A stretch of DNA of 64,000 nucleotides, from the sequence record OR786310.1; one strand, given 5' to 3'. This document shows, piece after piece, positions 493 to 53,026 of the stretch. Made by a program: the position numbers and the translations under genes. This DNA is from Escherichia phage ETEC-TG. Under the pieces are notes generated by a model. That model was not told the DNA's origin. It did no database searches and saw nothing but the letters and a program-made list of their open reading frames with translations. Numbering within the stretch: position 1 is the first letter of the stretch; each line of letters opens with the position of its first letter.

Positions 493-550
493 ATTCCCTC
501 CTATAAAAGAAAAGCCCCCTGAAACAGGAGGCTTTGTTCAGATATCGGCA

Positions 551-1887: not shown

Positions 1888-2293
1888 TACCCCTCCATTC
1901 AAGACAAGCCATAACTTTACGCCAATCACTTTCTGTAAGAAAAATCTCGTTTGCTTTCTTCCACAAATCTAAATCGTGAAGGGTTGGAATACGATATGTT
2001 AGTTCACAGAATCTATGCTCTTCTTCTGTAATATAACCAAAATGCAGAGCCACATCGTGAAACCAACACCAACCATGCATCTCTCGAACAACATGGTCAT
2101 GTTGAGACATTATTTTATGCCGTAAACCTAACCAACAAGGAACAGATACTTTAGTAGTCTTTAATCTGTGATCAACAGTATTAGAGTATTCAATAATAGC
2201 TGTCAGTTTCAATCGTGCTTTTTCTAAATCCTCATGGGTCACTTTGAAATAACTTTCTGAAAGATATCCACACATATTAATAACCTCCTTCAA
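1880..2293 (-). CDS. hypothetical protein
   Basis: 137 aa ORF, translationally coupled to neighbours. Confidence 0.4.
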   Translation of the reverse strand: MKEVINMCGYLSESYFKVTHEDLEKARLKLTAIIEYSNTVDHRLKTTKVSVPCWLGLRHKIMSQHDHVVREMHGWCWFHDVALHFGYITEEEHRFCELTYRIPTLHDLDLWKKANEIFLTESDWRKVMACLEWRGNE

Positions 2294-3218
2294 AAGGCTT
2301 AACTACATGTTGATTAGCTTTAAAACGTTCAACATAGTCGTTTTCGCCCATGTTTTCATATAGCTTAGTAATAACATAAAAGTTTTCCCAAGCATATTCC
2401 CTAAACCAACCACTAGTGATGGATGTGCAGACTTTAGATAAAGCCATTATAAAACTTTGCTTAGGGGTTGGACCTCCGATCTCTTCACCGAAAGGAATTT
2501 GTGAACGTTCCAAAGCCAAAACACACGCTTCTTCATAAACACCTAACAGGCGCACATGTTTTGGTTGAGCAAAAAACTTTTCTTTGCTGGTCATAACTTC
2601 ACTTCCATCTTTCATATAAGATTTATATGCTGGAGCATCCATTACCGCGATTGCTTCATGGATAGAATCATGATCATAAACATACGGAACCTCATCACCT
2701 TTAAAGAAGTCTTTACTTTTTACGTTTAAGTTCGGATGAGAGTAAGTGTATGTTTCTTTCTCACGCAACTCATAAATACTCTTAAGATTTTCTGGGATCT
2801 TTGCACCCAGTGACCGCATGAAATGAATATCTTTCATAGTTTTAAAGAAGTGAGGACTATCCTTTTTAAAACGATGACTCATTTTAAGAAGGTAGAGCAC
2901 ATCTAAAGGAGCAACAACATGTCCAGCGTAAGTTCGACGAACATCATCAGAATCTTCACAATAACTAATCAAAGCTTCTGTGCTATCTCCTTGAGAAGCA
3001 ATATCGTATTCCAAATGTGCACCAGCTATCATTTTGACATGGCCTTTGTTTCCTTTACGTTCTACAAGTTCAACAAACTCATCTTGAGAGAACATTTTTG
3101 ATAATTCTTCCCACTCTTGTTCTGTACACAGGTAATCTAAATCTACACAAGGGCGATACAAGTCTTTTCCCATGTCCATAGCATGAATTTGTAATGCACG
3201 GCTACCAATTAACACCAT
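2277..3218 (-). CDS. hypothetical protein, possible nucleotidyltransferase fold
   Basis: 313 aa; N-terminal GS followed by CVDLDYL resembles the hG[GS]...[DE]h[DE]h signature of Pol-beta-like NTases. Confidence 0.4.
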   Translation of the reverse strand: MVLIGSRALQIHAMDMGKDLYRPCVDLDYLCTEQEWEELSKMFSQDEFVELVERKGNKGHVKMIAGAHLEYDIASQGDSTEALISYCEDSDDVRRTYAGHVVAPLDVLYLLKMSHRFKKDSPHFFKTMKDIHFMRSLGAKIPENLKSIYELREKETYTYSHPNLNVKSKDFFKGDEVPYVYDHDSIHEAIAVMDAPAYKSYMKDGSEVMTSKEKFFAQPKHVRLLGVYEEACVLALERSQIPFGEEIGGPTPKQSFIMALSKVCTSITSGWFREYAWENFYVITKLYENMGENDYVERFKANQHVVKPFEGGY

Positions 3219-3275
3219 AATATTTCTCCTCTATTGGTTGATAGGTTAAGTTTATCAAGCTTCCAGATTCCTGTC

Positions 3276-3300
3276 AATAAAAAACCCGCCGAAGCGGGTT
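3276..3300 (-). terminator. intrinsic terminator (UUCG-loop hairpin plus U-run)
   Basis: Minus-strand reading CCCGC-TTCG-GCGGG followed by TTTTTT, downstream of ORF 3309..3581. Confidence 0.6.
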
Positions 3301-3308: not shown

Positions 3309-3581
3309 CTAACACATTGAGGAAGAAGAGATCCAAACACCTCTTGTGGTTAAACCATTTTCATCCAACTCTACACCATAATCTTCACAAATGAAATCAA
3401 TATAGTGATCTGCGGCTGGCGTTCCTGTAGGGTAATAAGTTTCTCCGTTACCGTAGTCACCTATCCAAGCTTGTTCCTGAAACTGTTCACAAAGTTCTTC
3501 AATTTCCTTACGAAACTTTCTTTGTGCTTGTTCCATCTCTTTAACTTTCTTTTTTATCAGCAGTTCGCCTTCAGACTCCAC
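3309..3581 (-). CDS. small acidic protein, W-x-SSS-C tail family
   Basis: 90 aa ending RGVWISSSSMC; same C-terminal tail as two neighbouring ORFs. Confidence 0.45.
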   Translation of the reverse strand: MESEGELLIKKKVKEMEQAQRKFRKEIEELCEQFQEQAWIGDYGNGETYYPTGTPAADHYIDFICEDYGVELDENGLTTRGVWISSSSMC

Positions 3582-7806: not shown

Positions 7807-7851
7807 AATCCCTCCTTAAAATACTCCCTCCGAAAAGGGAGTATAAGTATA

Positions 7852-8303: not shown

Positions 8304-8813
8304 TTAAACAAAATAAAATGGTTGAGAGAGGCCCAAACGATTCTTTGGGTCGTATACATACCAAGCGTATGCTGTCTTATCTGTTCCACCTGCAACAAAC
8401 GAAGGCCGTTCTGAAAGGACTATAAGGTTTGTTGGTGGATTCTTTTGATGGAACTCTCGTCGTTTCTTTGACTCCAAGAAGCCCAACCGAAGAAGATAAA
8501 TACAAACATCCGCCTCTTTTAAGCTCTTTTCCAAGAACTCCATTGCTAACTTAAATGGAGGGTTTGTGATTATAATGTCGGGACGATTTTCCCATTCATG
8601 ACTAAAATAATCTTTACCTTCTTCAAGTTCGCAATATTCTGAACCTTCAGGAAAATGGCGATAAATCGCTTCAGCTTCACCTCTGCAAGGTTCTGCAAAA
8701 ACCCAACCTTCTTCCTTTAGATTTTTGAAATCTATAACACTAAACAAACTATTGATTGCTTTTTGCGGTGTCGGATAATAATCGCTCGTTGGGCGATCAT
8801 AATCTAATGCCAT
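8304..8813 (-). CDS. putative DNA methyltransferase (N6-adenine or N4-cytosine type)
   Basis: DYYPTPQ (AdoMet-binding-like) and NPPF (motif IV of amino-MTases) in a 169 aa protein. Confidence 0.55.
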   Translation of the reverse strand: MALDYDRPTSDYYPTPQKAINSLFSVIDFKNLKEEGWVFAEPCRGEAEAIYRHFPEGSEYCELEEGKDYFSHEWENRPDIIITNPPFKLAMEFLEKSLKEADVCIYLLRLGFLESKKRREFHQKNPPTNLIVLSERPSFVAGGTDKTAYAWYVYDPKNRLGLSQPFYFV

Positions 8814-9231
8814 CTAAAATCTCCTCTTTTGTAATATTATCCAACTCTTTAAAAGATGAAATCTCGTTTAATAATCCTATTTGATCAGCCTCTAGAGGAT
8901 AAGTGTTTTTATCTGTTTTTCTAGACAGAATATCTTCAACAAACTTATCAATAGCCAAAGAAGAATCATAAAATTTTAAAAGTTGGTAATCCATAGGAGA
9001 TATTTTATCATCTCTTAGAAATATTTCTAACATGTTTTCAGGAGTATCGTGGTTTAGTTTATGTTCACCAAAAATATTAACTTCGTAAACATCTTTGCCA
9101 AACCAACGTTTTTTCTTTTCAACAGTATAGGTTTTTGCCACCAGACCATCTAAACAGTTTCTTGCCCTCTTACATGTTTGACGGTAAGAGTGGATAGCGC
9201 CTTCAACAAACTTAGCAGGAACTTGTAACAT
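8797..9231 (-). CDS. hypothetical protein
   Basis: 144 aa ORF with RBS ATAGGAGA. Confidence 0.4.
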   Translation of the reverse strand: MLQVPAKFVEGAIHSYRQTCKRARNCLDGLVAKTYTVEKKKRWFGKDVYEVNIFGEHKLNHDTPENMLEIFLRDDKISPMDYQLLKFYDSSLAIDKFVEDILSRKTDKNTYPLEADQIGLLNEISSFKELDNITKEEILDGIRL

Positions 9232-9276
9232 TATTAATCTCCTATGTTTAAGAAATGCCCCCGAAGGGGCAGTTTG

Positions 9277-9969
9277 TTAAATAGCGGTTTCTTCGAAATC
9301 CGCCACATTTACGAGATTAATATTTTCAGATTTAGAAGTCAAGTTGTTTTCTGCAACAGATTTTTCTTCAGTATCCGCCTCGTTACCTGCCACGTTACGA
9401 GGTTCTTCTTCACCGTAGGGATTACCGAATTTCAAAAGATTGATTAATTCTTCTTTGGAGAAGTTTTCTAAATCATCATCTGTTAATTCAATAATCTCAT
9501 CTTGTTCTTCAATAAATGTTTCACCACCAGAAAAAGCATCTCGCTTTTTAGCTACTTCCATAGCCTGTTCTGGTGTTGCTCCTGCATCAAGAGCAGCTAA
9601 AGCAAAGTCTGACCCGCTTCCTACCGCATAATATTCTTCATCAATCGGATATGCACGTGTTGGGTTGTTACCTTCGTGCAGGAAAATACGTCCGTCTGGA
9701 TGAACAACAAGTGCAATAAACTCTTCATCTTCTTTATCTGGATCAGAGTGAATCATCAAACCAGGGACAGCATCACGTGCTGCTTCGCACTGTAGATTTT
9801 GTTCAAACCATTGAAAGAAAGAAAGCACGGAGGTCAGACGACCAGCACCACCTACAAGGTAATCTCCAATTTTTCGGACCTTTTTGAAATTAATAGAATC
9901 TACACGTCCACCAAAAGTTACCTTACCGTCACTCAAAATCTTATTTTTGGTCGCAATAATTGTCGTCAC
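9277..9969 (-). CDS. HslV-like (ClpQ) Ntn-hydrolase peptidase with acidic C-terminal extension
   Basis: MTTIIATKNKILSDGKVTFGG...KKVRK...GGAG...GSGSDFALAALDAG follows the HslV pattern (Thr2 nucleophile, GSG motif); about 90 extra D/E-rich residues at the C-terminus. Confidence 0.6.
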   Translation of the reverse strand: MTTIIATKNKILSDGKVTFGGRVDSINFKKVRKIGDYLVGGAGRLTSVLSFFQWFEQNLQCEAARDAVPGLMIHSDPDKEDEEFIALVVHPDGRIFLHEGNNPTRAYPIDEEYYAVGSGSDFALAALDAGATPEQAMEVAKKRDAFSGGETFIEEQDEIIELTDDDLENFSKEELINLLKFGNPYGEEEPRNVAGNEADTEEKSVAENNLTSKSENINLVNVADFEETAI

Positions 9970-11264: not shown

Positions 11265-11300
11265 GTAGCACTCCTTTTAGAAGGGGCCGAAGCCCCTTTA

Positions 11301-11801
11301 TTAGTTGTAAGCATCTAAAGTTCCAGAAGTCAGAACTTTAATTACTCGTTCAGCACGGTTTGGCGTCTGGCTATACCATCGGCTTTTACGCATGTTTTTA
11401 CCTGCTTGAGTATAATATGCATTGCTGATTAAAGTCAAGCTATTTTGAAACCCTTCAGCACCTTTTAACCCCAACTGGAAAACCATGTTGATTATTCCCA
11501 ATTTACGAGTATCACTAACCTTATCATAGATTGGTGATAAGATAGTACTGTTTTTTATGTCTCTCTTCACTTTTGCAACATCGTCAGCAAAGATTTGACG
11601 GGCTTCTTTTTCTGTGATAACTCCATTAGTCTTACGACCAAGAAGATTATCTAAGATTTGAATAGCCTTTGCTTTATCTTTTATTTTAGTCAGAAGGTGT
11701 CCTATACCGACTGTCCAATAACCAAGATGGTCTTGATAAACAGTAAGCTTCAGTCCTTCATCGACTCGTAGCATATCAAACTCATCTACTACTTTAGCCA
11801 T
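11301..11801 (-). CDS. endolysin, T4-type lysozyme (GH24)
   Basis: N-terminus MAKVVDEFDMLRVDEGLKLTVYQDHLGYWTVGIGHLLTK matches the T4 lysozyme catalytic region (E11/D20/T26 context). Confidence 0.9.
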   Translation of the reverse strand: MAKVVDEFDMLRVDEGLKLTVYQDHLGYWTVGIGHLLTKIKDKAKAIQILDNLLGRKTNGVITEKEARQIFADDVAKVKRDIKNSTILSPIYDKVSDTRKLGIINMVFQLGLKGAEGFQNSLTLISNAYYTQAGKNMRKSRWYSQTPNRAERVIKVLTSGTLDAYN

Positions 11802-12224: not shown

Positions 12225-13066
12225 TACCTCTCCTTATTAAGTAATACTGCTAAAGACTGTTCAATACCTTTATTTAAATCTGATTTTGTAAGATAGTGAC
12301 TGGTTACTAGTTGTGACTTCACCGGACGTGCTGCTGGAGCATTATAGGTTGAAGCTGATACCGCCGATATCTTAACAGGTTCTGGCATCTGTGTCAAGAT
12401 CTTTTCCGCAAACTCCGCCCAAGAAATAAAATGGCTTCCTGCAAAATGGTAAGTCTTAACAGACCTTGACCAACCTGTTTTTAATACTTCAAAAATAGCT
12501 TCTGCTAAATCTGGAGCATATGTTGGACAAGAGAACTGATCAGCAACAATAATAAAATCACGTTGTCCATCATTATAGCGAGACAACATCGTTTTTAGAA
12601 AGTTATTTCCAAATTCGCTATATACTGAGGCTGTTCGAATAATATATGCATTTGGGTTAACTCCTCGCACCATTTTTTCACCAAGTTCTTTCGTATACCC
12701 ATAATTGTTTATTGGGTTAGGTGTAGTATCTTCAAAAATAGGATGAGAATAATTAAAAATATAGTCTGTAGAAATATGCACAAAATCAATTTTAAGTTTG
12801 CTGCACACTGCCGCAATATTTGCAGGTCCATACGCATTAACAGCCAAAGCAGTAGCAAAATCATGTTCCGCTTTATCTACAGCCGTATAAGCAGCGCAGT
12901 TAATAACACCGTCTACATAATCTTCAACAATAGCGTTTCGCACAGCTTCAAAATTTGTAATATCTACACGTTCTTTAGGATAAATTAAAGATACATTTGA
13001 AGGAACCACTTTACGTAAAGCTTGTCCCAGTTGTCCATTACCACCCAATACCAGATATGTTAGCAT
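12224..13066 (-). CDS. rmlD: dTDP-4-dehydrorhamnose reductase
   Basis: N-terminal Rossmann GGNGQLG, STDYIF and YGYTK (YxxxK) motifs typical of RmlD. Confidence 0.8.
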   Translation of the reverse strand: MLTYLVLGGNGQLGQALRKVVPSNVSLIYPKERVDITNFEAVRNAIVEDYVDGVINCAAYTAVDKAEHDFATALAVNAYGPANIAAVCSKLKIDFVHISTDYIFNYSHPIFEDTTPNPINNYGYTKELGEKMVRGVNPNAYIIRTASVYSEFGNNFLKTMLSRYNDGQRDFIIVADQFSCPTYAPDLAEAIFEVLKTGWSRSVKTYHFAGSHFISWAEFAEKILTQMPEPVKISAVSASTYNAPAARPVKSQLVTSHYLTKSDLNKGIEQSLAVLLNKER

Positions 13067-13626
13067 ACACCCTCACTACGCAACTGTTGAAAAGATTTAG
13101 CCATTGCATCTTTTGTTGATAAGATAGGTTTAAAATCTTCATCAAAAATCATATCAAAGCCCCAATCGATCCCTATATCAGGATCATCCCAACGTAAACT
13201 TTGTTCGCTAGAAGGGTCGTATGGAGTTGTGCATTTGTATTCAAAGATAGCATCCATACTCAAAACTATAAAACCATGTGCCAAACCAGGTGGAAGCCAA
13301 AATTGCGTATGGTGTCGTGCACGAAGAACAACACCGTCCCAAGCACCGTAAGTTGGACTATCTTTACGTAAATCTACAGCGAAATCCAATACTTCTCCAC
13401 TTACACAACGAACAAGCTTACCTTGCGGGTTGTTTGTTTGGAAGTGCATTCCTCGCAAAACACCGAAGTTTGATTTAGACATGTTATCTTGAACGAAAGT
13501 TTGTCTACCAATAATATCTTCGTATTTTTGTTCATTGTATGTTTCTAAAAAGAAACCACGATCATCTTTATAAACGTCTGGTTTGATAATTACCGCACCT
13601 TCAATTTTTGTTTTTTCTACTTTCAT
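13060..13626 (-). CDS. rmlC: dTDP-4-dehydrorhamnose 3,5-epimerase
   Basis: DDRGFFLETY and RGMHFQ cupin motifs characteristic of RmlC. Confidence 0.85.
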   Translation of the reverse strand: MKVEKTKIEGAVIIKPDVYKDDRGFFLETYNEQKYEDIIGRQTFVQDNMSKSNFGVLRGMHFQTNNPQGKLVRCVSGEVLDFAVDLRKDSPTYGAWDGVVLRARHHTQFWLPPGLAHGFIVLSMDAIFEYKCTTPYDPSSEQSLRWDDPDIGIDWGFDMIFDEDFKPILSTKDAMAKSFQQLRSEGVC

Positions 13627-13635
13627 TTTCTCTCC

Positions 13636-13962
13636 TTACCAGACATGTTGAGAAATAATAGTTTCCGTTTTAATGTTATATTTTTCAAGTAGCTCTGCAT
13701 AGGCTTCTTTTGCATTCTCATTTAATTGCTCAAGATCTACAGCTACGCTTCCTTCTCCGCCTTCTAAATAAATACCATATATGCAATAAGACTCATCAGC
13801 ATCGTAGAAAGGAGAGATGCGACTTAAGTCCAGACCTTCTTGTAAGAACCAGTTAAAATCTCCGTCAAATTCTTCTTCAATTCTAGGATCTTCTCCTACA
13901 GCCTCTTCCCACTTATTAAAAGGTGCACCCTGTAACATACGCCATTCGATATCAATACCCAT
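13636..13962 (-). CDS. hypothetical acidic protein
   Basis: 108 aa ORF. Confidence 0.4.
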   Translation of the reverse strand: MGIDIEWRMLQGAPFNKWEEAVGEDPRIEEEFDGDFNWFLQEGLDLSRISPFYDADESYCIYGIYLEGGEGSVAVDLEQLNENAKEAYAELLEKYNIKTETIISQHVW

Positions 13963-14254
13963 TTTTCATCTCCTCCTCTTGAGCAGCTTTAATAATTGCT
14001 TCATAAATATCGTAAGCAATGCCTCCACAACATCTAGCTTCGAAAGCTATTGCTTCTGCAATGTGGTCTGTTAGTTCTCGTGGAATTCGGACATACTCTT
14101 TTTCACTCTCCATCTTCTACCTCCGACCCTGCTTTTTCAAATACTACTACTCGTCCTTCACCATGACAATTCAGGCAAGGAAATGTTACCATAATTTCCA
14201 CTTCCATCTGTCCAGTCCCACCACACACAGGACAAAAAATAAGTTTTTCAGCCA

Positions 14255-14464
14255 TTATTCCTCCTTAATTATTTCAAACTTGGCAACACCATTTACAATA
14301 ATATGACCACAAGACATAACTCCTAGCCAAGGATCGCCGTTTTTCTTCAGGCGTTTACCGAATACATCACAAAAACCATTCTTCATTTCGGAGGCTTCAT
14401 AAGAAGCCCCTTTGTCAAAAACGTCTTTGAATGTGTCGATTATACCAACACATCTCAAAATCAT
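14255..14464 (-). CDS. hypothetical protein
   Basis: 69 aa ORF immediately downstream of nrdB. Confidence 0.35.
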   Translation of the reverse strand: MILRCVGIIDTFKDVFDKGASYEASEMKNGFCDVFGKRLKKNGDPWLGVMSCGHIIVNGVAKFEIIKEE

Positions 14465-15549
14465 TAGAAGTCAAGCTCCTCATCATCAGAGAGATCTTTG
14501 TTAGCTGAATTCAATTTGTAATTAGTTAACTGAATCTCTTGGGCTGCTGACTGAATCAAATCAGGATTCAACCATTTTTCCATCCAAGCTAAAGGACTAT
14601 GTTTAGGTGCTTTAAACTTGGCTTTCATTTTCAATCGACGATAAATAGGAGCAGCATTGAAATAAACCCACTGTTTAGACAATTCGGCGTTAAGACCTAC
14701 AATAAAACGACCTTCACTAAACAGGTAGTCACACCACTGTTCCTCTTGTTCAACAACAGTGTCGAGGATCAAAGTCAACTCTTCAATATTGTCTTCGTAA
14801 ATTTTACGCCAAATTGGGTCATGCATCAATGCATCAATTACAGCATAATCCATCTTAACATGCAAGATTTCATCTAGCATAATTTTCTGGATCAGCTTAC
14901 AAGCCCCAACAAACAATTGTTGTTCTGCCATAGCAAAAGTAGCAGAGAAGGAAGATATAAACTGAATACCTTCTAATCCAATCAGGGCTACCATCCCTTT
15001 AAGAATCAGCAATCGAAGTTCATCGTTAGCTTCAATCAATCCTAGAGCATACTTATGACCAGCTTCTTCCAACTGACCCATGATATCAGCAATGATACCC
15101 ATACGATTGAAAATTTTATCATTAATCATAATCTGATTGATGACTTCAATTGGATCTGGAGTACATTGACGGATTATTTCAGAATACGTTAACGCATGGA
15201 GAACTTCCATTTCACTCTGCTTCATCATCATAGCACAGGCTTCATTGTTACTCAAGAATGGAGAGAACAAAGTGATGATTGATTTTGCAAGAGAATCATT
15301 TTCCCATTGGAACGATAAGTTTTTAATCATAACATCGTAGTTGTTTTTAGAACAAGCTACGAAATCTTTACGTGTCTGATCCAAGTTAACTTCGTTTTCA
15401 TCCCAATCTTGTGCTTTTTGAAGTTTGTAGAGTTTGTGCATTTCTGGATAAGTTACGTTAACAGAATCAAAGATCCCTAATTGCTCCCCCAAAAATACTG
15501 GATATTTTCCTGTTTTGTAAACTTCGTTGTGTAAATTAATTGCTGCCAT
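14464..15549 (-). CDS. nrdB: ribonucleotide reductase class Ia small subunit
   Basis: 361 aa with diiron/tyrosyl-radical R2 layout, RBS GAGGAG, adjacent to nrdA. Confidence 0.9.
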   Translation of the reverse strand: MAAINLHNEVYKTGKYPVFLGEQLGIFDSVNVTYPEMHKLYKLQKAQDWDENEVNLDQTRKDFVACSKNNYDVMIKNLSFQWENDSLAKSIITLFSPFLSNNEACAMMMKQSEMEVLHALTYSEIIRQCTPDPIEVINQIMINDKIFNRMGIIADIMGQLEEAGHKYALGLIEANDELRLLILKGMVALIGLEGIQFISSFSATFAMAEQQLFVGACKLIQKIMLDEILHVKMDYAVIDALMHDPIWRKIYEDNIEELTLILDTVVEQEEQWCDYLFSEGRFIVGLNAELSKQWVYFNAAPIYRRLKMKAKFKAPKHSPLAWMEKWLNPDLIQSAAQEIQLTNYKLNSANKDLSDDEELDF

Positions 15550-15565: not shown

Positions 15566-15590
15566 TAAAAAGGGGCCGAAGCCCCTTTAT
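15566..15590 (-). terminator. UUCG-loop hairpin plus U-run between homing endonuclease gene and nrdB
   Basis: Minus-strand GGGGC-TTCG-GCCCC followed by TTTTTAT, then the nrdB RBS. Confidence 0.55.
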
Positions 15591-15592: not shown

Positions 15593-16249
15593 TTAGCCTC
15601 GAAATACTGTTTTTGTTTCCGCCAGGTGCCAATAGAAATCCGCCTTGTTTACAAGAGTGTTGTACACCTCTGGATAAAAATGTTCTTCCTCTTTGTAACG
15701 ATCCGCTGTTTCCCTGATTGACTTAGCTTTATCCTTTAGCCAAGCGAAGTGTGCCTCTTCCTCTGTAGCGAAGTAGCCTAAATGCTTACCTTTACTTCCA
15801 GAAGCTTTTGCATAAATCTTACCATCTTTCCTAACATGTGCTCCTAGTAAGTATTTTCTTTCATACCTTTTAGCATAACTTAAGAGTGTATTTATGTAAG
15901 GAGGAACAAACCTACAATATTCAGGACAATAAACAGTATTTCCTTCAAGAACAAGATCTTTATCTAAAACAAAGCCTTCCACGCTATGTTCTTGATACCA
16001 GTTATCAAAGTTTGAAAAGGTGAACCAAGCATCACACACGGTAACATCTTTATAACCTGGTCTAATGTTTTCCATACGATATGCACGATTAAACATACCT
16101 TTCCAAGCTGCATAAGAAGGGTCTATGAATGTATTAACCCTTTTCCCATTGATAACACCACCTTCCCACAATCTACGTTCAACATCCACAATCAAGGGGA
16201 TTTCTCCCCTCTCTGTGAGAACGGTAACTTTACGTTTACCCTTCTTCAT
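15593..16249 (-). CDS. putative HNH-AP2 homing endonuclease (possibly degenerate)
   Basis: Sits between nrdA and nrdB; C-terminal LGYFATEEEAHFAW is AP2-like; central VLDKDLV...CPEYCRFV resembles an HNH-family core with altered catalytic residues. Confidence 0.5.
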   Translation of the reverse strand: MKKGKRKVTVLTERGEIPLIVDVERRLWEGGVINGKRVNTFIDPSYAAWKGMFNRAYRMENIRPGYKDVTVCDAWFTFSNFDNWYQEHSVEGFVLDKDLVLEGNTVYCPEYCRFVPPYINTLLSYAKRYERKYLLGAHVRKDGKIYAKASGSKGKHLGYFATEEEAHFAWLKDKAKSIRETADRYKEEEHFYPEVYNTLVNKADFYWHLAETKTVFRG

Positions 16250-16260
16250 CTGTTCTCCTA

Positions 16261-18504
16261 CTACATTTTACAGGCACTACACCCTTCGTCTTCAGAATCT
16301 TCTTGTGCTAAAGAGTCTGCTGATTTTGTTCTACTATTAAGGTAATACAACGACTTACCACCCAGTCTAGCAAAATTCAGAATAAACTGCATCTCAGCTT
16401 TCACTGATAAACGTCCACCTACCAATTTAGAATAATCTAGCCAAGAATCACAAGAAATTCCTTGGTCCGTAAACTTGGTAAAGATACCATACATTTCTGC
16501 AAGGTCTTTAGCCGGAGTGTCCCAGGCGGACTGGTAGAACATTTTCAGTTTTTCGTAGTCTGGAACAATAAATAATACACTACCTTTCTGACTTTGTTTA
16601 TACATAATAGTATCACGAACAGGATACAGAGAGTTAGTAGTATTGCTTACCAAACTGCTGGACTCATTAGGTGCGATAGCAGCCAAGACACTGTTACGGA
16701 TACCACCTTGTTCAATGATTTCAGCACGTAAGCCTTCCCAGTCCATTTTAAGATCAAAATTACCGATACTATCTACTGTTTTAGCATAAGTGTCAATTGG
16801 TAGCCAACCTTGAGGCCATTTGGTCTTATCAATCCATTCCGCATTACCTTTTTCCTTAGCCAGACGCAGAGAGGCTTTTGCCAACCAGAAGTAATGACGT
16901 TCTGCAAGTTCATGCATTAATTTTTTAGCATAAGCATCTGAATAATTTACAAAATTACTTGCCAAGTAATGCGCTAAGTTTGTAATGCCTACACCAATAG
17001 ATCTACGTGCTTTAGCAGTTATTTCGTTATGTTTAAATGGATAATCCATTGTTTCAATAACATTGTCAATTGTCAATACAGTGTAGTATGCAACATCCTC
17101 ATATTCTTCAGGTAAGACACGACCAGCAACAATAGAAGATAAGAAGCATAAAGCCAATTCTTGATCTTCTGTATTCTCCCCAGTAAAGAGATCCGGCATA
17201 CTGTGGAAAGCTTTAGTTGGTAAGAAGATCTCTTGACACAGGTTTGATTGATACACCGTATCCAGGAAAGGTGTATGGTTGTTAACGTTGTCAGCAAAGA
17301 ACATGTAAATACGTCCTGTTTCTGCACGTTGAACAATAATCTCTGTCAGAAGATCACGAGCCTTAACAAATTTTTTCTTAATGCGACGACGACTTACTTT
17401 GTCATAAACTGCATCAAACTCCTCTTCACTTTTATACAAAGCTTCATAAAGTTCAGGAGCATCATCACAACTAACTAACATCCAATCTTCGTTTTTTGCT
17501 GCTCGACGCAAGAACGAACGGTTAACAACAATAGAATAATCCAGTTTGTCTACTCGTTTATCTATAGGTGTTGTTGGATTTTTCAGTCGAATCAGATCGT
17601 CGAAGTCTGGTTCAAGTATGGTAAAGGTAACTGTAGCACTACCTCCACGGCTTGCTTGCTTCGAAGCTCCAACACTATCTTCCATCCATTTCAGATACGG
17701 AAGAAGACCACCATGAATAATACGATTATTCTTAACACCTTGACCTGTGGCACGAGTTTGAAGATTAACACCAATACCTGCGTTATTCAACGTATACTCA
17801 TGAGCTAAGTAATTAGCAATGGCTAAAGACTCTGCTGTGTCATCTGCACGGAATAAACAACAAGACGCACTTCCTTTGATTGGAGTTCGTAGAGTTGTCA
17901 GATATGGTGATGGCAGATTAATCTTAAGATCGCTAACATAAGTATACAGTTTTTTAATATCTTCTATACGGCGTTCTTTTGGTTGGATCTCCATAACCTT
18001 CATTGCGATACCAATGAAAAGAAACTGTGGAGACTCATGCACCACATCGTTTACTGCATCTCGGATAAGATATTTATCCACCATCTGACGTAAAACAGAA
18101 TAGCCATAAGTTAGATTTTTATTATGCTTTACAATCTTACCAATTTCTTTGATCTCTTCATCAGTATAATCCATTTTAGCCCAATGTCCACGTTCTACCA
18201 TATCATGATAAAAGGTATTCAGTGAAGGGATACTGTGGTATCCCCCATGAGCCTGTTTGTAAATCATACCCAGAAGAAGTCTTCCTGCCATATCACTGTA
18301 AGCTTGTGTTTTCTTGTCAATACACGCTGCAATCATTGCTTTATGCAGATCACGTGTAGACACACCGTCATAACACCGCTTCACAGCTTCTAATTCAATT
18401 TCAGACCAGTTTAGTTTACCTGCTGCAAATTCAGACCACTTGCGAAGTTTTTCTGGATTAAACTCCTCTGTCTTACCGTTAGATTTAGTTACAAAACGAA
18501 TCAA
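16261..18504 (-). CDS. nrdA: ribonucleotide reductase class Ia large subunit
   Basis: 747 aa, N-terminal ATP-cone-like region (VTKSNGKTEEFNPEKL), size and context with nrdB. Confidence 0.9.
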   Translation of the reverse strand: MIRFVTKSNGKTEEFNPEKLRKWSEFAAGKLNWSEIELEAVKRCYDGVSTRDLHKAMIAACIDKKTQAYSDMAGRLLLGMIYKQAHGGYHSIPSLNTFYHDMVERGHWAKMDYTDEEIKEIGKIVKHNKNLTYGYSVLRQMVDKYLIRDAVNDVVHESPQFLFIGIAMKVMEIQPKERRIEDIKKLYTYVSDLKINLPSPYLTTLRTPIKGSASCCLFRADDTAESLAIANYLAHEYTLNNAGIGVNLQTRATGQGVKNNRIIHGGLLPYLKWMEDSVGASKQASRGGSATVTFTILEPDFDDLIRLKNPTTPIDKRVDKLDYSIVVNRSFLRRAAKNEDWMLVSCDDAPELYEALYKSEEEFDAVYDKVSRRRIKKKFVKARDLLTEIIVQRAETGRIYMFFADNVNNHTPFLDTVYQSNLCQEIFLPTKAFHSMPDLFTGENTEDQELALCFLSSIVAGRVLPEEYEDVAYYTVLTIDNVIETMDYPFKHNEITAKARRSIGVGITNLAHYLASNFVNYSDAYAKKLMHELAERHYFWLAKASLRLAKEKGNAEWIDKTKWPQGWLPIDTYAKTVDSIGNFDLKMDWEGLRAEIIEQGGIRNSVLAAIAPNESSSLVSNTTNSLYPVRDTIMYKQSQKGSVLFIVPDYEKLKMFYQSAWDTPAKDLAEMYGIFTKFTDQGISCDSWLDYSKLVGGRLSVKAEMQFILNFARLGGKSLYYLNSRTKSADSLAQEDSEDEGCSACKM

Positions 18505-18520
18505 CTTCTCCTCCCTATTA

Positions 18521-18775
18521 TTAATGCATATTCAAAACATCTACATCATAACCGAACTTCATTTCATTAAAAAGTCCATTAGCATATAGAAAACCTTCAA
18601 AATGAGTTATGTCATCAAACCCTTTTGCTTTTGCTCGACGGTCTGCTTCTTGTCTTTTAGGAGATAAACGTTTTGAAGTGTCTAGAATTACAGTTACATT
18701 ACAACCAACAGTTTCATCAAAATAGACTTCGATTTCACAGCCTTCATATTTATTATCAGTCATTGTCCCTCTCAT
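18521..18775 (-). CDS. hypothetical protein
   Basis: 84 aa ORF. Confidence 0.35.
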   Translation of the reverse strand: MRGTMTDNKYEGCEIEVYFDETVGCNVTVILDTSKRLSPKRQEADRRAKAKGFDDITHFEGFLYANGLFNEMKFGYDVDVLNMH

Positions 18776-19182
18776 TGATTAGTATCATCTGCTTTCGCAG
18801 GATCATAAGAGTTACCGAAATCATCCATCTTAATATGTGACGCACCCCAACCTGTAAATTCTTCATCACCAAAATGAAAAATATCATTTTCTTGATAGAT
18901 TCGTTTAAAACCACAATTAGGTGAAACAGGGAAAGTGAAAAGCGTTGTATTTGCAAACACTACTCGCTTATCGTTATTGCTTCGGATATTCACATTACGC
19001 TCAACAGAATAGTGTGAATCTTCAGCCATACCCAGCATTACAAGCGACGCTCTAATAACAGCATTTTGTTTCTCGTGTGGGATATTGCCATTGTGTTTAT
19101 TTGATTCTAGTTTCCAGATAGGGGTAGACATTACAGTAGACATGCTTACGGTAGCCCAAGTTGTAGTATTTACTAATGACAT
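18772..19182 (-). CDS. hypothetical protein
   Basis: Start at MSLVN preceded by AAGGAG; the longer track ORF lacks an RBS. Confidence 0.4.
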   Translation of the reverse strand: MSLVNTTTWATVSMSTVMSTPIWKLESNKHNGNIPHEKQNAVIRASLVMLGMAEDSHYSVERNVNIRSNNDKRVVFANTTLFTFPVSPNCGFKRIYQENDIFHFGDEEFTGWGASHIKMDDFGNSYDPAKADDTNQ

Positions 19183-19280
19183 ATTTTCTCCTTCATTTTG
19201 AATGGGAGGACTCACCTCCTCCCAGTATTGTGCTATATTATACTAAAACTAATACTAAAGTCAATAATTATTTAAACAGA

Positions 19281-20279
19281 TCACCATTTAGTATGATTTG
19301 TTAAAAGTTGACGATGTTGAATCCAGCCTTTGAAATTGCCAGACCAAAACTTACCATTACGATCTACATGGGTAATACCTGGTTCCCAAGAGTTAAAATC
19401 CCAAGGAGCATTGATAAACAAATCTTCAAAACAGTTCTCCCCATATTGTTCGCATGTTTCTTGCATTGGGGTGGCTTGATGTTCAAACGGAGAAGCATGA
19501 ACCTTGCGCCCAGTCAGCAAACGACCATAGATATCTAAAGCTTTATCTTTAGTTGCATTCAAACGACGATAACTAACCTGTGCACAACACGAAGCTGAAA
19601 TAGCTTTGGCTTCTTCCAAAGTAAGCACAACAACTTCTCCAGATTCATCTTGAACATAGTATCCACCAAAAACAAAATGATCGTCACCTTCTGTGCCAAT
19701 ATTATCATAGAAATGGTTTACATAAGGTGTGTGCCATTGCCCTGGTTTCAGCACTTCTGGTGTAGATTCTTCATACTCTTTGTGCATCTCTTTAGCCAAA
19801 GCTTCGATAGTAGGATCGGCTTCTTTGTCATCACGTAGCCACCAGAAATTTTCATATTCTGTTGCTGTCAGAACTGTTTTAATTCGTTGGAAAGGTTCCA
19901 GAAGACGGTTTGCAACTTGTTTGTGGTACCCTGCCAAAGAGAATTCTTCTGCAAAACGTGCTGCACTAAGCGCGGCAAGATCCCACCACTCTTGAGCAGT
20001 ATAACCTGCATCAATAAGAGCATCATGGTCAACACCTTTGTCCTGCATACCAGGTTGGTTAGCCCCGAAACGATAAGGACGAGCAGGCTGATTTCGAACC
20101 ATTTCGATCAGTGTTTTAACAGGTATAGCACGGCTAGAAGCAGCATTACGACTGAACAGGCGGTGAGTCATCAGTTCTGAATGAATAATACGTGGATATT
20201 CAAGTTCGAAAGTTACAATCTCTTTTCCGTCTTCAGTGATGGAATGTGCAATAATACTAGCCGAAATCTGTTTTGTCAT
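19281..20279 (-). CDS. thyX: flavin-dependent thymidylate synthase ThyX-like
   Basis: ELMTHRLFSRNAASS matches the ThyX RHR-x7-S signature with the first Arg replaced by Thr. Confidence 0.7.
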   Translation of the reverse strand: MTKQISASIIAHSITEDGKEIVTFELEYPRIIHSELMTHRLFSRNAASSRAIPVKTLIEMVRNQPARPYRFGANQPGMQDKGVDHDALIDAGYTAQEWWDLAALSAARFAEEFSLAGYHKQVANRLLEPFQRIKTVLTATEYENFWWLRDDKEADPTIEALAKEMHKEYEESTPEVLKPGQWHTPYVNHFYDNIGTEGDDHFVFGGYYVQDESGEVVVLTLEEAKAISASCCAQVSYRRLNATKDKALDIYGRLLTGRKVHASPFEHQATPMQETCEQYGENCFEDLFINAPWDFNSWEPGITHVDRNGKFWSGNFKGWIQHRQLLTNHTKW

Positions 20280-20288
20280 TTTTTCTCC

Positions 20289-20897
20289 TTAGTTTTTAAA
20301 ATTGTTCAAAGTGTTAAAAACATCCAAACATGTTAGCCACTGATCTTCTAAACCTGTGATCACAACATTTGGTTTTTTCTTTAGTTCTTCTAGATGGTTA
20401 TCTTTATAAGGCGTATTAAAATATATTTTAACCACTTCATCTGGAAAATATAGTAGGTTATCAGCCCTGTCATCTATGGCTATATCACAAGGCAATAAAT
20501 ATTTTTCTTTTGTAGCAAAAAAGCCGTTACCAGATCCTTTGCTAAAATCAATCGTGTCCAATGTTCTTAAAACATGTTTATGTTTAGAACTTAAGTGACC
20601 ACCTTTTGTCACACTTGCGATCAAAAGATTGCCACCTTTCCTTGAAACATACTTTAAGAAATCTGGCATACCTGGAACAAAACCCATTGTATCGTAGAGA
20701 TGAGGATTATCCAGAAATCCGTAAGGATCTATGTTGAACTCTTCCCTGAAACCAGGAAAATAGTTGGTAAGATCGTAATCTGCATTTTTTGTGAATGTGT
20801 CGATTTTAACACCAAGGCCACTAATCTTATTCAACCATTCTAACCAAGCAACATCTAACGGAGCCACAACTAAATCCCAATCACATACTATCTGCAT
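20289..20897 (-). CDS. putative HAD-family nucleotidase
   Basis: N-terminal IVCDWDLVV (DxD-type HAD motif I) and later DDR motif. Confidence 0.45.
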   Translation of the reverse strand: MQIVCDWDLVVAPLDVAWLEWLNKISGLGVKIDTFTKNADYDLTNYFPGFREEFNIDPYGFLDNPHLYDTMGFVPGMPDFLKYVSRKGGNLLIASVTKGGHLSSKHKHVLRTLDTIDFSKGSGNGFFATKEKYLLPCDIAIDDRADNLLYFPDEVVKIYFNTPYKDNHLEELKKKPNVVITGLEDQWLTCLDVFNTLNNFKN

Positions 20898-20933
20898 AAA
20901 ACCTCCTCTCTCTTTTAGTATAGTTATCTTATA

Positions 20934-21509
20934 CTAACTTTCAATTTCCTGCAATAGGATTTTGACTATTTGTTTACGGCGTTTTGCTACTGTGCTTTCA
21001 GGTTCTATTTTACGCTTCTTCAGCCACGCTTTATCTTTCTTAGCTCTACACAAAGCTATCGCTTCTTTTTCAGCTTTTGCTTCTTCAAAAGATATGCCTT
21101 GCTTGTCTGCATAAGCAAGAATAGAGTTGCACAATTTACAAACCATTCGCAAATCTTCTTCTTTCACATAGATCAAACGGAAAACAAAAAGGGGAATATC
21201 CTCAAAACATTGAAGTTGTTTTGCTGCGTGAATATGATCCACTTGGAAGTCTTTCATTCCTCCTCTGTGTCCACATATTTCGCACTCACAATTCCAAACT
21301 TGTTTTGGTTTTCCAGTTTTCTTGTCTATCATCACATTGCCGTCTTTATCTACACGATCAACTTTAAAACGCCTTGCATTGATAACCTTAATTTTATTAG
21401 GGTGTCTCATCCATGCTTTTCTAAAACATCCCCTAAGATAAGTATAAAATTCAGCTTGTGTTTTCCAGGGTGTTCCTTCACCCCACATTATTTTTGGTTC
21501 ACCTGCCAA
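20934..21509 (-). CDS. hypothetical protein with HNH-like zinc-binding motifs
   Basis: CECEICG...QVDHIHA...CKLCN pattern (CxxC ... DH ... CxxCN). Confidence 0.4.
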   Translation of the reverse strand: MAGEPKIMWGEGTPWKTQAEFYTYLRGCFRKAWMRHPNKIKVINARRFKVDRVDKDGNVMIDKKTGKPKQVWNCECEICGHRGGMKDFQVDHIHAAKQLQCFEDIPLFVFRLIYVKEEDLRMVCKLCNSILAYADKQGISFEEAKAEKEAIALCRAKKDKAWLKKRKIEPESTVAKRRKQIVKILLQEIES

Positions 21510-21676
21510 TATTGCTCACCTTTTTAGCTGTATATTCCCCTGGTGGGATATTGTGTTTAAAAAACAAAAGGCGGTCTAACCCCGCCTTGCACATTGTTTC
21601 TGGAATAGTCAAAGTTAGTAAAAGTTTATCACCTTTTCGATTGAATATTTTATAAACTTCTCCTGCTCCATATTGT

Positions 21677-22078
21677 TTAGTATTGCTCGCCACTAATACG
21701 TTCCTTAAGTTGTTTAATAGCTTCAACTGCATCTACATAAGAAGAGTTATACATGTGTTTCAGTGCCACTCGGATTAAAGGATCTTTTGTGAAGAAATCA
21801 ATAAGAAGCATAGCTTGATCATGTTTAGCTGCATTTGTCATAGATGGATAATTTTCACGAACCATATACGTGTTATTTTGCATAAGGGTTCTTTCTAGTT
21901 CAATACAATGAATAGCTTTATCTAGGTTAATCTGACGTTCACCTTTAATACGTGTTGCGTATTTTGCCAATTTGCAAAAACAAGGTGTGCCACCAACCAA
22001 ATAAGCTAGTTCAATAGGTTGCATTGCCATTTTTGTGTAGTGATCACCGTCAACCTGATTATCAAAAGCATTAGACAT
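21677..22078 (-). CDS. hypothetical protein
   Basis: 133 aa ORF. Confidence 0.35.
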   Translation of the reverse strand: MSNAFDNQVDGDHYTKMAMQPIELAYLVGGTPCFCKLAKYATRIKGERQINLDKAIHCIELERTLMQNNTYMVRENYPSMTNAAKHDQAMLLIDFFTKDPLIRVALKHMYNSSYVDAVEAIKQLKERISGEQY

Positions 22079-22343
22079 AATTTTCCTCCTGAATTCCTAC
22101 TGCGCCTTCTTCTGGGTAATCTGTATAATAAGCTACCCTACCTTGATAGATAACATCACCATCATCATTGTAGATTGCTGTATCTTCTTGAATTGTTATT
22201 TCAACGTCAAGTAAATCTGGGTCTTTCTCGATGGTATAGTTTAAACCTAACATTTCAAACAGTTCGAAAATTTCGTTACCTGTTAATGTAATGCTCATAT
22301 TTCCTCCTTTTATTGTGGTTAGCAGAGTATACACTAATATCAA
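22071..22343 (-). CDS. hypothetical protein
   Basis: 90 aa ORF. Confidence 0.35.
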   Translation of the reverse strand: MILVYTLLTTIKGGNMSITLTGNEIFELFEMLGLNYTIEKDPDLLDVEITIQEDTAIYNDDGDVIYQGRVAYYTDYPEEGAVGIQEENYV

Positions 22344-22384
22344 ATTTTTGTCAATAAAAAAGGGAGCAATAAGCTCCCTGATTA

Positions 22385-24682: not shown

Positions 24683-24754
24683 AACGCCTCCTAAAAAGCC
24701 TACCTCATTAAGTAGGTAGGCATAATATCATAACTAATCCCGCAAGTCAAGAAC

Positions 24755-25633: not shown

Positions 25634-25689
25634 GTTTCCTCCTATTTAATACATCTCACATTACCGCCCGTAAAGGGCGGCTTACAACA

Positions 25690-35192: not shown

Positions 35193-35267
35193 GGCCCTGT
35201 AGCTCAATGGGAGAGCTGTCGGCTCATAACCGATAGGTAGCTGGATCGAAACCAGCCAGGGCCACCA
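35193..35267 (+). tRNA. tRNA-Met (CAT)
   Basis: Manual cloverleaf: acceptor GGCCCTG/CAGGGCC, anticodon loop CTCATAA, T-stem GCTGG/CCAGC, encoded CCA. Confidence 0.65.
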
Positions 35268-35269
35268 AC

Positions 35270-35344
35270 GTCTTTATGGTGTAATGGATAGCACAGGAGT
35301 CTTCTAAACTCTTAGTCAAGGTTCGATTCCTTGTAAAGACACCA
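35270..35344 (+). tRNA. tRNA-Arg (TCT)
   Basis: Acceptor GTCTTTA/TAAAGAC, anticodon loop CTTCTAA, T-loop TTCGATT, encoded CCA. Confidence 0.65.
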
Positions 35345-35540
35345 GAACATTTTAACATGAATTAGCTCAAGTGATTTGAACCCACTACTGATCATGGTGG
35401 CAGAGAATGAGGCAAGTATGTCAGACATTATAAACAAAGGCCACGGTTATATTAGAAGACATAAATGCTCGAAGAGCACCGTTCGTGGAGAACGGGGGTT
35501 GGTGGAGTCACCATTCATGGTAAAATGTTTTAAAAAACTA

Positions 35541-35570
35541 TTGACAACTAACATTATTTTATGTTAGATT
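35541..35570 (+). promoter_or_regulatory. sigma70-like promoter (TTGACA, 18 nt, TAGATT) internal to tRNA array
   Basis: -35 TTGACA 35541..35546, -10-like 35565..35570, 8 nt upstream of tRNA-Ser. Confidence 0.4.
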
Positions 35571-35578
35571 ATAAGTAT

Positions 35579-35669
35579 GGAAGGGCAAATCGACGTGGCG
35601 ACGAAAACGGTCTTGAAAACCGCCGAGCTTGAAAGAGCCTTGGGAGTTCGACTCTCCCTCCTTCCGCCA
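35579..35669 (+). tRNA. tRNA-Ser (TGA), class II
   Basis: Acceptor GGAAGGG/TCCTTCC, anticodon loop CTTGAAA, long variable arm, T-arm GGGAG-TTCGACT-CTCCC, discriminator G, CCA. Confidence 0.6.
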
Positions 35670-35673
35670 GATT

Positions 35674-35759
35674 GGTAGATTGGTGAAATGGTAGCCACGA
35701 CAGTTTGCTAAACTGTAGTCGGAAACGGCGTGTAGGTTCGAGTCCTACATCTACCGCCA
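35674..35759 (+). tRNA. tRNA-Ser (GCT), class II
   Basis: Acceptor GGTAGAT/ATCTACC, anticodon stem-loop ACAGT-TTGCTAA-ACTGT, long variable arm, discriminator G, CCA. Confidence 0.6.
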
Positions 35760-35900
35760 AGTTCTTTTTAATATAGCTTACTTTAGCAGAGTAAATCTTC
35801 GGCAAGTGGCGGTAACCACTTTACCGATAACTCATAGTTAGTGGTGTGAACACTGGCTATTTTAAAAAGAATTTAAAAAGAATTTAAATATTAGTATTTA

Positions 35901-35988
35901 GGTGAGTTAATTCCGTAGGGGTAGCGGGGCAGACTGTAAATCTGTTATCATTGCGATTCGGGTGGTTCGACTCCATCACTCACCACCA
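35901..35988 (+). tRNA. tRNA-Tyr (GTA), class II
   Basis: Acceptor GGTGAGT/ACTCACC, anticodon stem-loop GCAGA-CTGTAAA-TCTGT, long variable arm, discriminator A, CCA; extra nucleotides between acceptor and D-stem. Confidence 0.55.
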
Positions 35989-35994
35989 AATTAA

Positions 35995-36080: not shown

Positions 36081-36087
36081 GAATTAT

Positions 36088-36165: not shown

Positions 36166-36170
36166 GCTTT

Positions 36171-36552: not shown

Positions 36553-36563
36553 AAAGATGTAGG

Positions 36564-37333: not shown

Positions 37334-37357
37334 AGCCTCCTTATTGGAGGCTTTTTG
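37334..37357 (+). terminator. intrinsic terminator closing the tRNA array
   Basis: AGCCTCC-ttatt-GGAGGCT followed by TTTTT. Confidence 0.65.
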
Positions 37358-49571: not shown

Positions 49572-49617
49572 TACGGCGGGGGTTAAGCCCCCGTTATCAA
49601 AATAAAGAGGATCTATA

Positions 49618-50097: not shown

Positions 50098-50104
50098 TAA
50101 ATAA

Positions 50105-50125
50105 AGGGCAGAAATGCCCTTTTTA
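50105..50125 (+). terminator. intrinsic terminator after tube gene
   Basis: AGGGCA-gaaa-TGCCCT followed by TTTTT. Confidence 0.65.
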
Positions 50126-52900: not shown

Positions 52901-52907
52901 TAAAATA

Positions 52908-52930
52908 CCTCGCTTCGGCGGGGTTTTTTC
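52908..52930 (+). terminator. intrinsic terminator after tape measure gene (UUCG-loop hairpin)
   Basis: CCTCGC-TTCG-GCGGGG followed by TTTTTT. Confidence 0.65.
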
Positions 52931-53026
52931 GTTTCCCTTGACACGAAGTTTCTATATGTGTTACAATAATCAATATGGGAAGATCTTGCATCTTCCTTTT
53001 GGCATTATCATTACTACGAGGTTATC

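Follow-up and report, generated by a model that had tools for sequence, protein, structure and literature searches.

Short GC-rich hairpins closed by a UUCG tetraloop recur in the spacers between genes of Escherichia phage ETEC-TG, and they are probably C(UUCG)G hairpins of the intrinsic-terminator type, some of them leaky or mainly stabilising, a reading drawn from the sequence and its comparison with relatives. The stretch analysed (the window) comprises 64,000 nt of record OR786310.1 and is ~98% identical to Phapecoctavirus genomes, phAPEC8-like E. coli myoviruses of the Stephanstirmvirinae (e.g. OR437326 and NC_052659, 'nieznany'). Its genes run on the minus strand to ~34 kb and on the plus strand from there onwards. 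Five of the hairpins, called sites A to E here, had been reported in a preliminary description of the window; a sixth is found at 7821.

3283..3300, minus strand: site A, AACCCGC-UUCG-GCGGGUU, 8-10 nt past the UAG of ORF 3309-3581 and followed by U6.
7821..7844, minus strand: sixth UUCG hairpin, AUACUCCCUU-UUCG-GAGGGAGUAU with a closing U·G pair, 7 nt past a UGA; UUUA and then an AGGAGG SD (4 nt) follow, and the spacer has an MFE of -14.3 kcal/mol.
9256..9271, minus strand: site B, UGCCCC-UUCG-GGGGCA, 5 nt past the UAA of the HslV-like gene (9277-9969), with the tail UUUCUUAAAC and an SD 13 nt downstream; ORF 8797-9231 starts at 9231.
11281..11298, minus strand: site C, AAGGGGC-UUCG-GCCCCUU, 2 nt past the lysozyme UAA (11301-11303), with the tail CUAAA, no real U-tract, and the AGGAG SD of phoH (start 11263).
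15569..15588, minus strand: site D, AAAGGGGC-UUCG-GCCCCUUU, 4 nt past the UAA of an HNH gene (15593-16249), followed by U5 and then the AGGAG SD of nrdB (start 15549).
52907..52924, plus strand: site E, ACCUCGC-UUCG-GCGGGGU with one U·G pair, 7 nt past the UAA of the tape-measure gene (50912-52900); U6 at 52924-52929.

Genome-wide counts were made on a complete relative, nieznany (98% identical), assembled from four pieces. The loci of relatives came from viral and metagenome collections, which were queried with NrdB, PhoH, the HslV-like protein, the product of ORF 2277-3218 and that of the gene after site E. At gathering thresholds, Rfam recognised only tRNAs in the window, and no Rfam family was found for the UUCG hairpins; a literature search on Phapecoctavirus and rV5-like phages found no transcriptome or end-mapping paper.

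35.2-37.2 kb: cluster of 11 tRNA genes (Rfam).

Are the hairpins more frequent than chance would have them? The strict pattern SSSSS-TTCG-SSSSS has four exact matches in the window (at 3285, 9257, 11283 and 15572), all on the minus strand, which is the transcribed one; the expectation from 100 dinucleotide shuffles of the window was 0.01, and none of the 100 reached four. When the stem was relaxed to at least five pairs with G·U allowed, the sense strand of nieznany held 16 UUCG hairpins, where 200 shuffles gave 3.6 on average and never more than 11; CGAA-loop hairpins under the same loose rule numbered 2 against a shuffle mean of 4.2. Perfect tetraloop hairpins in nieznany (at least five pairs, at least four of them G-C) come to 36, and the transcribed strand carries nine with UUCG, none with CGAA and six with GNRA. 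Strand bias is absent from the bare hexamer CTTCGG in that genome (26 versus 25). Enrichment that is specific both to the strand and to the hairpin points to a function in RNA and counts against a palindrome acting in DNA. The preliminary description had proposed that the hairpins are non-random and intergenic, and both the motif search over the full genome and the comparison with shuffled sequence bear this out, including for its plus-strand example at 52907-52924.

The GC-rich UUCG copies all lie between annotated CDS, just past stop codons, in the window as in nieznany. Those of nieznany beyond the window are likewise intergenic and just 3' of stops, and the cores of C/D and of A recur exactly in two of them; within that genome, identical 18-mers are found three times (AAGGGGCTTCGGCCCCTT) and twice (AACCCGCTTCGGCGGGTT). 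All five reported sites have the C(UUCG)G form with 5-8 pairs, E having one internal U·G. They are over-represented, intergenic and carry UUCG on the transcribed strand, all of them marks of the T4-type C(UUCG)G class.

The distance from stop codon to hairpin is 2-10 nt at every site, and the sites have part of what defines an intrinsic terminator: a GC-rich stem and a loop of 3-8 nt, on the sense strand and 3' of a stop codon. A short GC stem, a stable tetraloop, A-rich 5' and U-rich 3' flanks, sense orientation and the post-stop position together make up the intrinsic-terminator signature. For the short spacers that hold B, C and D, nearest-neighbour folding predicts an MFE of -12.8 to -15.3 kcal/mol, and a terminator scan of the window listed A, B and E as terminator-like. 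Predicted Rho-independent terminators number 20 in rV5 (PMC3606486) and 55 in the Phapecoctavirus ASO2A (PMC10612097). A counter-point to the terminator reading is that 5-7 bp is short for a stem that terminates efficiently.

At least five U in the 8 nt past the GC core are found in 10 of 11 genome copies, against a background of 6.5% (binomial) or 10% (empirical, from intergenic 8-mers), giving P ~1e-11. By site, the U count in these 8 nt is 7/8 for A, 6/8 for D and for E, 5/8 for B (3-5 in its relatives) and 3/8 for C (again 3-5 in relatives), and five further genome copies are U-rich. A decay-weighted tail score, a rough guide that uses the 0.9/0.6 decay rule of d'Aubenton-Carafa and TransTermHP, separates A (4.76), E (4.3) and D (4.0) from C (2.15) and B (1.9). 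The 18-mer AAGGGGCTTCGGCCCCTT, common to sites C and D, offers a second view of the tail, as it is present in at least 120 unrelated IMG/VR contigs. Among 123 listed occurrences, T makes up 71-86% at each base from +1 to +4, and the sequence on the 5' side is rich in A; of the 8 nt that come next to GCCCC, at least six are T in 92 occurrences and never fewer than four, so that the site C tail, with 3 U, is an outlier below this minimum. Judged by these flanks, the AAGGGGCTTCGGCCCCTT hairpin appears to be a widely reinvented terminator module. The hairpins had been called 'not simple terminators' on the ground that two of them lack a U-run, and as a class they do not fit that description: the full signature is present, with a U-tract in 10 of 11 copies and with T at the frequencies just given past the 18-mer. 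What holds of the original observation is that the tails at 9256 (AUUUCUU) and 11283 are weak, and are so in all relatives examined, but only 11283 clearly lacks a U-run and 15572 has one.

Sites A and E combine the hairpin and its U6 with a sigma-70-type promoter:

3249..3277, minus strand: promoter TTGACA-N17-TGaTAAACT with an extended -10 (10/12 matches, TG present), directly past the U-tract of site A.
52938..52967, plus strand: promoter TTGACA-N18-TACAAT (11/12 matches, TG present), ahead of the baseplate/tail genes (53027 onward).

At site A the hairpin, a U5-6 tail and the promoter are kept in relatives down to ~67% protein identity, with TTGACA and TGnTAAACT conserved. At ~52% identity the CCCGC-UUCG-GCGGG hairpin is found without the promoter and with the SD directly next, and at ~43% another stem occupies the same place, GGGCUC and GAGCCC enclosing UUCG or UCCG. 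The TTGACA of the site E promoter is conserved in five relatives. Orthologues of site E carry UUCG on wholly different stems (GGGGC, GCCUCGC, CCCGC); five pairs differ on either side of the stem and pairing stays at 100%, figures from a small alignment that was hand-anchored on the hairpins and thus leans towards structure. In distant rV5-like contigs the GC hairpin is kept, the stop codon sometimes lying in the loop, and is followed by a non-U tail and directly by an SD; these tails imply that at some junctions the conserved part is the hairpin and not the terminator signature. With hairpin, U-tract and promoter in succession, A and E read as boundaries between transcription units.

Site D, the locus under which the hairpins were first reported, lies inside an operon, between an HNH endonuclease gene and nrdB, with nrdA just upstream:

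14464-15549: nrdB.
15593-16249: HNH endonuclease gene.
16261-18504: nrdA.

Its tail reads GCCCC-UUUUUAU and leads into the nrdB SD. Every relative examined has a hairpin and a U-rich tail at its nrdA/nrdB junction, in five gene arrangements in all: nrdA-hairpin-nrdB; nrdA-hairpin-small ORF-nrdB; nrdA-HNH-hairpin-small ORF-nrdB; nrdA-HNH-hairpin-nrdB, as in the window; and nrdA-hairpin-HNH'-nrdB. In most relatives the hairpin comes directly past the nrdA stop, whichever gene is next (orfX, an HNH gene or nrdB), and its loop is UUCG, GAAA or a degenerate CUUUGU on a longer G5/C5 stem. As nrdB lacks its own promoter, any termination at D must be partial. A further counter-point to the terminator reading is that the two subunits of one enzyme would be thrown out of balance if termination between nrdA and nrdB were efficient. 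Was the hairpin brought in with the HNH cassette? This origin was rejected: two relatives whose NrdB is 100% identical, and which have no HNH gene, carry the same hairpin between nrdA and nrdB. It is also contradicted by other relatives, in which the hairpin stands straight after the nrdA stop and before the small ORF or a different HNH gene.

The remaining three, B, C and 7821, stand before an SD, with weak U-tracts at B and C. Past the stem of site B comes AUUUCUUAAAC, ahead of the SD. Stems and loops vary among its relatives, e.g. AUGCCUC-UUAG-GAGGCAU, or AACCCCC and GGGGGUU enclosing UCAA or UCAC, and three pairs changed on both sides with 95% of cells paired, again in a small hand-anchored alignment. 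The relatives' tails hold 3-5 U of 8, often as AUUCCUAA, and the hairpin is missing at 62% identity. The predicted fold of the site B spacer has one further element:

9237..9256, minus strand: predicted weak second helix, the tail AUUUCUUA with the SD region UAGGAGAU of ORF 8797-9231 (MFE and centroid; spacer z-score -3.67).

Checked by eye, this pairing of tail and SD is seen as UUCCU with AGGAG in three relatives and is inconsistent across relatives. At site C the tail UUCUAAAA passes without a break into the SD of phoH. All relatives share the stem GGGGC/GCCCC unchanged; UUCG loops are confined to the clade of the window, the others having GCAA, GUAA or GAAA, and the tails are weak in every relative examined. 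It is possible, though we put this forward tentatively, that B, C and 7821, together with the site E orthologues of rV5-like phages that have no U-tract, form a distinct conserved module of stop, hairpin and SD which does not terminate. Such a module would act post-transcriptionally: it would fix the 3' end and half-life of the cistron before it, or it would insulate or gate the RBS that follows. Its tetraloop, whether UUCG or GNRA, would have been selected solely because it folds fast and stably a few nt from the terminating ribosome.

How would the hairpins act as terminators? They would form in the mRNA and cause generic factor-independent termination by E. coli RNA polymerase. Site D and most other genome copies, with a U-rich tract and no promoter before the next gene, would be partial, leaky terminators inside operons. 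Readthrough may be favoured by translation, as a ribosome stopped 2-7 nt upstream would cover the 5' arm of the hairpin (at site D, ~4-7 nt from the stop); such ribosome-gated leakiness would be in keeping with the finding of Li et al. (2015, PMC4824070) that a terminator a few bp past a gene is almost fully repressed. B and C could be very leaky terminators, or stable 3' hairpins that shield the upstream cistron from 3' exonucleases, or insulators of the RBS. UUCG, and GNRA in relatives, would be selected for letting a short stem of 5-7 bp fold quickly and stably. The AU-rich tail would double as the leader of the next RBS, and the closeness to the RBS would come from the 37-45 nt spacers of a compact genome. 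A phage antiterminator that overrides the sites was also considered and dropped; the 50-aa ORF annotated as a 'Q-like anti-termination protein' (PQ433349; 14103-14255 in the window) matches only PHROGs of unknown function.

In the preliminary description the hairpins were placed directly upstream of ribosome-binding sites. Those at 9256, 11283 and 15572 (and 7821) do stand directly before an SD, but at 3284 and 52908 a promoter comes first. This proximity is better explained by the stop codon 2-10 nt upstream combined with short spacers, and the nrdA-junction hairpin stays whichever gene follows. The suggestion that the hairpins may be attenuators fares no better: no antiterminator pairing was predicted, and the 37-45 nt spacers fold as a single hairpin, plus the SD helix at B, in both MFE and centroid structures.

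Could the hairpins do their work only after transcription? On this alternative, which we regard as rather unlikely, at least B, C and 7821 would not terminate; once an endonuclease had cut the AU-rich spacer, or decay had set in at a distal 3' end, they would block 3'-to-5' exonucleases and set the half-life of the upstream cistron, or they would provide a protective 5' hairpin for the downstream one. It accommodates the conservation of the hairpin at B and C next to a U-tract that is weak in all relatives examined, the distant orthologues of site E with their non-U tails, and the odd position of the site C tail among the 123 listed copies of the same hairpin. The loop swaps between UUCG, GCAA, GUAA and GAAA point to selection on thermodynamic stability, and in T4 a CUUCGG hairpin is reported to stabilise the gene 32 transcript (PMC8948821). 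U-tracts, however, are needless for a pure exonuclease barrier and yet are carried by 10 of 11 copies, and inspection by eye beside B and C showed no consistent RNase E-like motif. Nor are the two roles exclusive, since a terminator hairpin also shields the 3' end. More doubtful still is an element of translation initiation, in which a rigid hairpin 15-26 nt before the start codon insulates the RBS from base pairing to coding RNA upstream, or brings stop and SD together for re-initiation, and in which the tail and hairpin of B form a switchable helix that masks the SD. The nrdA-junction hairpin, which follows the nrdA stop before orfX, an HNH gene or nrdB, is not tied to one RBS, and a promoter separates A and E from the next RBS. 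In B, C, D and 7821 only 4-13 nt separate the 3' base of the hairpin from the SD. The folds predicted for C and D leave the SD unpaired. At B, the predicted pairing of AUUUCUUA with the SD-containing UAGGAGAU, echoed by UUCCU/AGGAG in some relatives, is what suggests masking; this is not conserved across all relatives, and any U-rich terminator tail can G·U-pair with a purine-rich SD. The phoH locus is one case in favour of a translational role, as one relative has a different gene upstream of phoH and the hairpin nevertheless stays with phoH.

An element acting at the level of DNA, be it a palindrome in double-stranded or cruciform form (for protein binding, recombination or as the target of a homing endonuclease) or a mobile REP- or MITE-like repeat, is very improbable. 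A palindrome needs no loop orientation, yet all nine perfect copies have UUCG, not CGAA, on the transcribed strand, and the GNRA loops of relatives are on the same strand. Identical 18-mers do recur in one genome (AAGGGGCTTCGGCCCCTT three times and AACCCGCTTCGGCGGGTT twice), as a mobile repeat would lead one to expect, but similarity ends at the hairpin core and the flanks of identical cores differ. Insertions and rearrangements adjoin the hairpins as well: the hairpin of site D may have an HNH gene before or after it, and in one relative the gene upstream of phoH is a different one; against this stand the orthologous, stable positions across relatives, the compensatory substitutions in the stems and the occurrence of the same 18-mer, with its U-tract, in at least 120 unrelated phages. 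A mobile palindromic repeat or DNA-level site was rejected on the strand asymmetry of the loop and the orthologous positions.

The UUCG hairpins had also been described as the only strongly GC-rich islands in their AT-rich surroundings. This does not hold, as eight other GC hairpins without UUCG were found in spacers of the window (511-535, 19203-19224, 22361-22379, 24698-24721, 25664-25680, 37334-37352, 49577-49593 and 50103-50122). Four of them deserve mention:

22361..22379, minus strand: putative non-UUCG terminator AGGGAGC-UUAUU-GCUCCCU-UUUUUAUUGACA, ahead of a promoter.
37334..37352, plus strand: putative non-UUCG terminator AGCCUCC-UUAUU-GGAGGCU-UUUU, past the tRNA cluster and with a TTGACT promoter next.
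49577..49593, plus strand: GC hairpin CGGGGG-UUAAG-CCCCCG, past the tail-sheath gene (identity taken from nieznany gp238/gp237), with a non-U tail and the next SD downstream.
50103..50122, plus strand: GAAA-loop hairpin AAAGGGCA-GAAA-UGCCCUUU of the same architecture, between tail genes and followed by UUAUC and an SD.

What do these hairpins offer to those who work with such phages? They have some value for annotation and engineering in a genus that is widely isolated for therapy, as they would mark unit boundaries (A and E) and a probable leaky terminator inside an operon (D). It is of moderate interest that tetraloops are swapped at orthologous places in the mRNA and that a subset without a U-tract is conserved. 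Loop swaps, compensatory stems and one 18-mer in at least 120 unrelated phages make up a natural example of selection for hairpin stability itself, and B and C, though few, lend themselves to tests that tell termination apart from roles in RNA stability or RBS insulation.

The hairpins are a class known in T4 and E. coli since Tuerk et al. (1988, PNAS 85:1364), whose account of intercistronic C(UUCG)G hairpins in T4 is summarised in PMC8948821; the finding is largely ordinary and leaves current understanding unchanged. The likeness to the T4 hairpins is close: a UUCG loop closed by C-G on a short stem, over-represented and almost always intergenic, on the mRNA strand of a large lytic coliphage. 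Intergenic stem-loops of T4, terminators for example, often have a UUCG tetraloop (PMC1702504) and, as in the T4 set, some copies here appear to be terminators and others merely stable intercistronic stem-loops. The lineage differs, being Phapecoctavirus (Stephanstirmvirinae) and not Tevenvirinae. With the intrinsic terminators of E. coli and its phages, A, D, E and most other copies share the GC stem, the 4-nt loop, the 3' U-tract, the A-rich 5' flank and the post-stop position, often with a promoter next. They depart from them in stems of only 5-7 bp and in the lack of an adequate U-tract at B and especially at C. Several copies are intra-operon with no promoter downstream and for that reason cannot be efficient terminators. 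B, C and the distant orthologues of E rather resemble stem-loops that stabilise mRNA, such as the gene 32 leader hairpin of T4 (PMC8948821), in being stable hairpins between cistrons for which a U-tract is not needed. The REP elements of E. coli (malEFG) are intercistronic stem-loops that stabilise mRNA as well; they are longer and imperfect, and belong to dispersed repeat families with conserved sequence. Unlike REP, the phage hairpins share only the minimal hairpin and occupy orthologous positions from which they do not move; neither shared sequence beyond the stem-loop nor variable, non-orthologous positions, as would be expected of REP/BIME- or MITE-like elements, were found. Lastly, Woese and colleagues are said to have described, in 1990, the interchange of UUCG and GNRA tetraloops at homologous hairpins of rRNA. 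The stem of site C, seen with UUCG, GCAA, GUAA and GAAA, and that of site D, seen with UUCG or GAAA, behave in the same manner, with the difference that the interchange takes place here in the mRNA spacers of a phage and not in a structural RNA.

The preliminary description's list of UUCG hairpins lacks a sixth such element, at 7821-7844 (minus strand). This hairpin has 10 pairs with a U·G closing pair, and it lies between a UGA stop 7 nt upstream and an AGGAGG Shine-Dalgarno (SD) site 4 nt downstream. At the hairpin that follows the HslV-like gene, the pyrimidine-rich 3′ tail (AUUUCUUA) and the SD region of ORF 8797-9231 (UAGGAGAU) form a predicted helix (9237-9256, minus strand); among relatives, some carry UUCCU and AGGAG at these positions and others are unable to form the helix.

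Hairpins without this loop also occur beside promoter-like sequences:

24683-24754, minus strand: promoter-like TTGACT...TATGATATTAT, followed directly by a hairpin
24698-24721, minus strand: that hairpin, GCCUACCU-ACUUAAUG-AGGUAGGC, then U5 and an SD site
35193-37215, plus strand: tRNA cluster of 11 genes
37334-37352, plus strand: non-UUCG terminator 3′ of the tRNA cluster, then a TTGACT promoter

The hairpin at 24698-24721 would sit at the very 5′ terminus of the mRNA, or would function as a leader terminator.

In nieznany (NC_052659), a complete relative of about 98% identity, the conserved hairpin (G)GCGGCA-AUGG-UGCCGC(C) is present in six copies between small early ORFs outside the window (50.7-57.2 kb; ~15700-22200 of piece L064), with two GGGGCG-GYAA-CGCCCC hairpins close by. 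The AUGG-loop hairpin is a repeated intergenic element separate from the UUCG class.

In contig CYGL01000168.1 of another relative (L054, 8999-10000), the end of a 320-aa protein lies directly 5′ of phoH and the hairpin preceding it. Judged by its size, this protein was taken as gp024 of nieznany, which carries the annotation DNA polymerase exonuclease subunit; the arrangement would then imply a deletion or rearrangement of ~13 kb, or a chimeric assembly, with its junction at the hairpin. Compared with nieznany (piece L001, 13745-15624), the window is missing, at ~13060-13640, two dTDP-rhamnose pathway genes that nieznany has, glucose-1-phosphate thymidylyltransferase gp041 and dehydratase/epimerase gp040; the difference is visible as a 1881-nt change of offset. 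The 50-aa ORF at 14103-14255 (minus strand) is a homologue of a PQ433349 ORF labelled 'Q-like anti-termination protein', a label that appears unsupported, as only PHROGs families of unknown function matched. An ORF of >650 aa (62046-64000, plus strand) continues past the window end. Its GC content is ~52%, compared with ~38% elsewhere, and climbs from ~62.0 kb, close to where the ORF begins, suggesting that a tailspike or receptor-binding module was gained by horizontal transfer.

The nrdA/nrdB junction holds an HNH gene:

14464-15549, minus strand: nrdB, one flank of the HNH gene
15593-16249, minus strand: free-standing HNH endonuclease gene between nrdA and nrdB
16261-18504, minus strand: nrdA, the other flank

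Comparison of relatives gave five arrangements of this junction:

Arrangement 1: no insert
Arrangement 2: small ORF of ~110 aa
Arrangement 3: HNH gene ahead of the junction's hairpin
Arrangement 4: HNH gene and small ORF
Arrangement 5: HNH gene, 49% identical, 3′ of the hairpin

Mobile endonuclease genes appear to have a hot spot at this junction, which is reminiscent of the arrangement in T4, where mobE is located between nrdA and nrdB.
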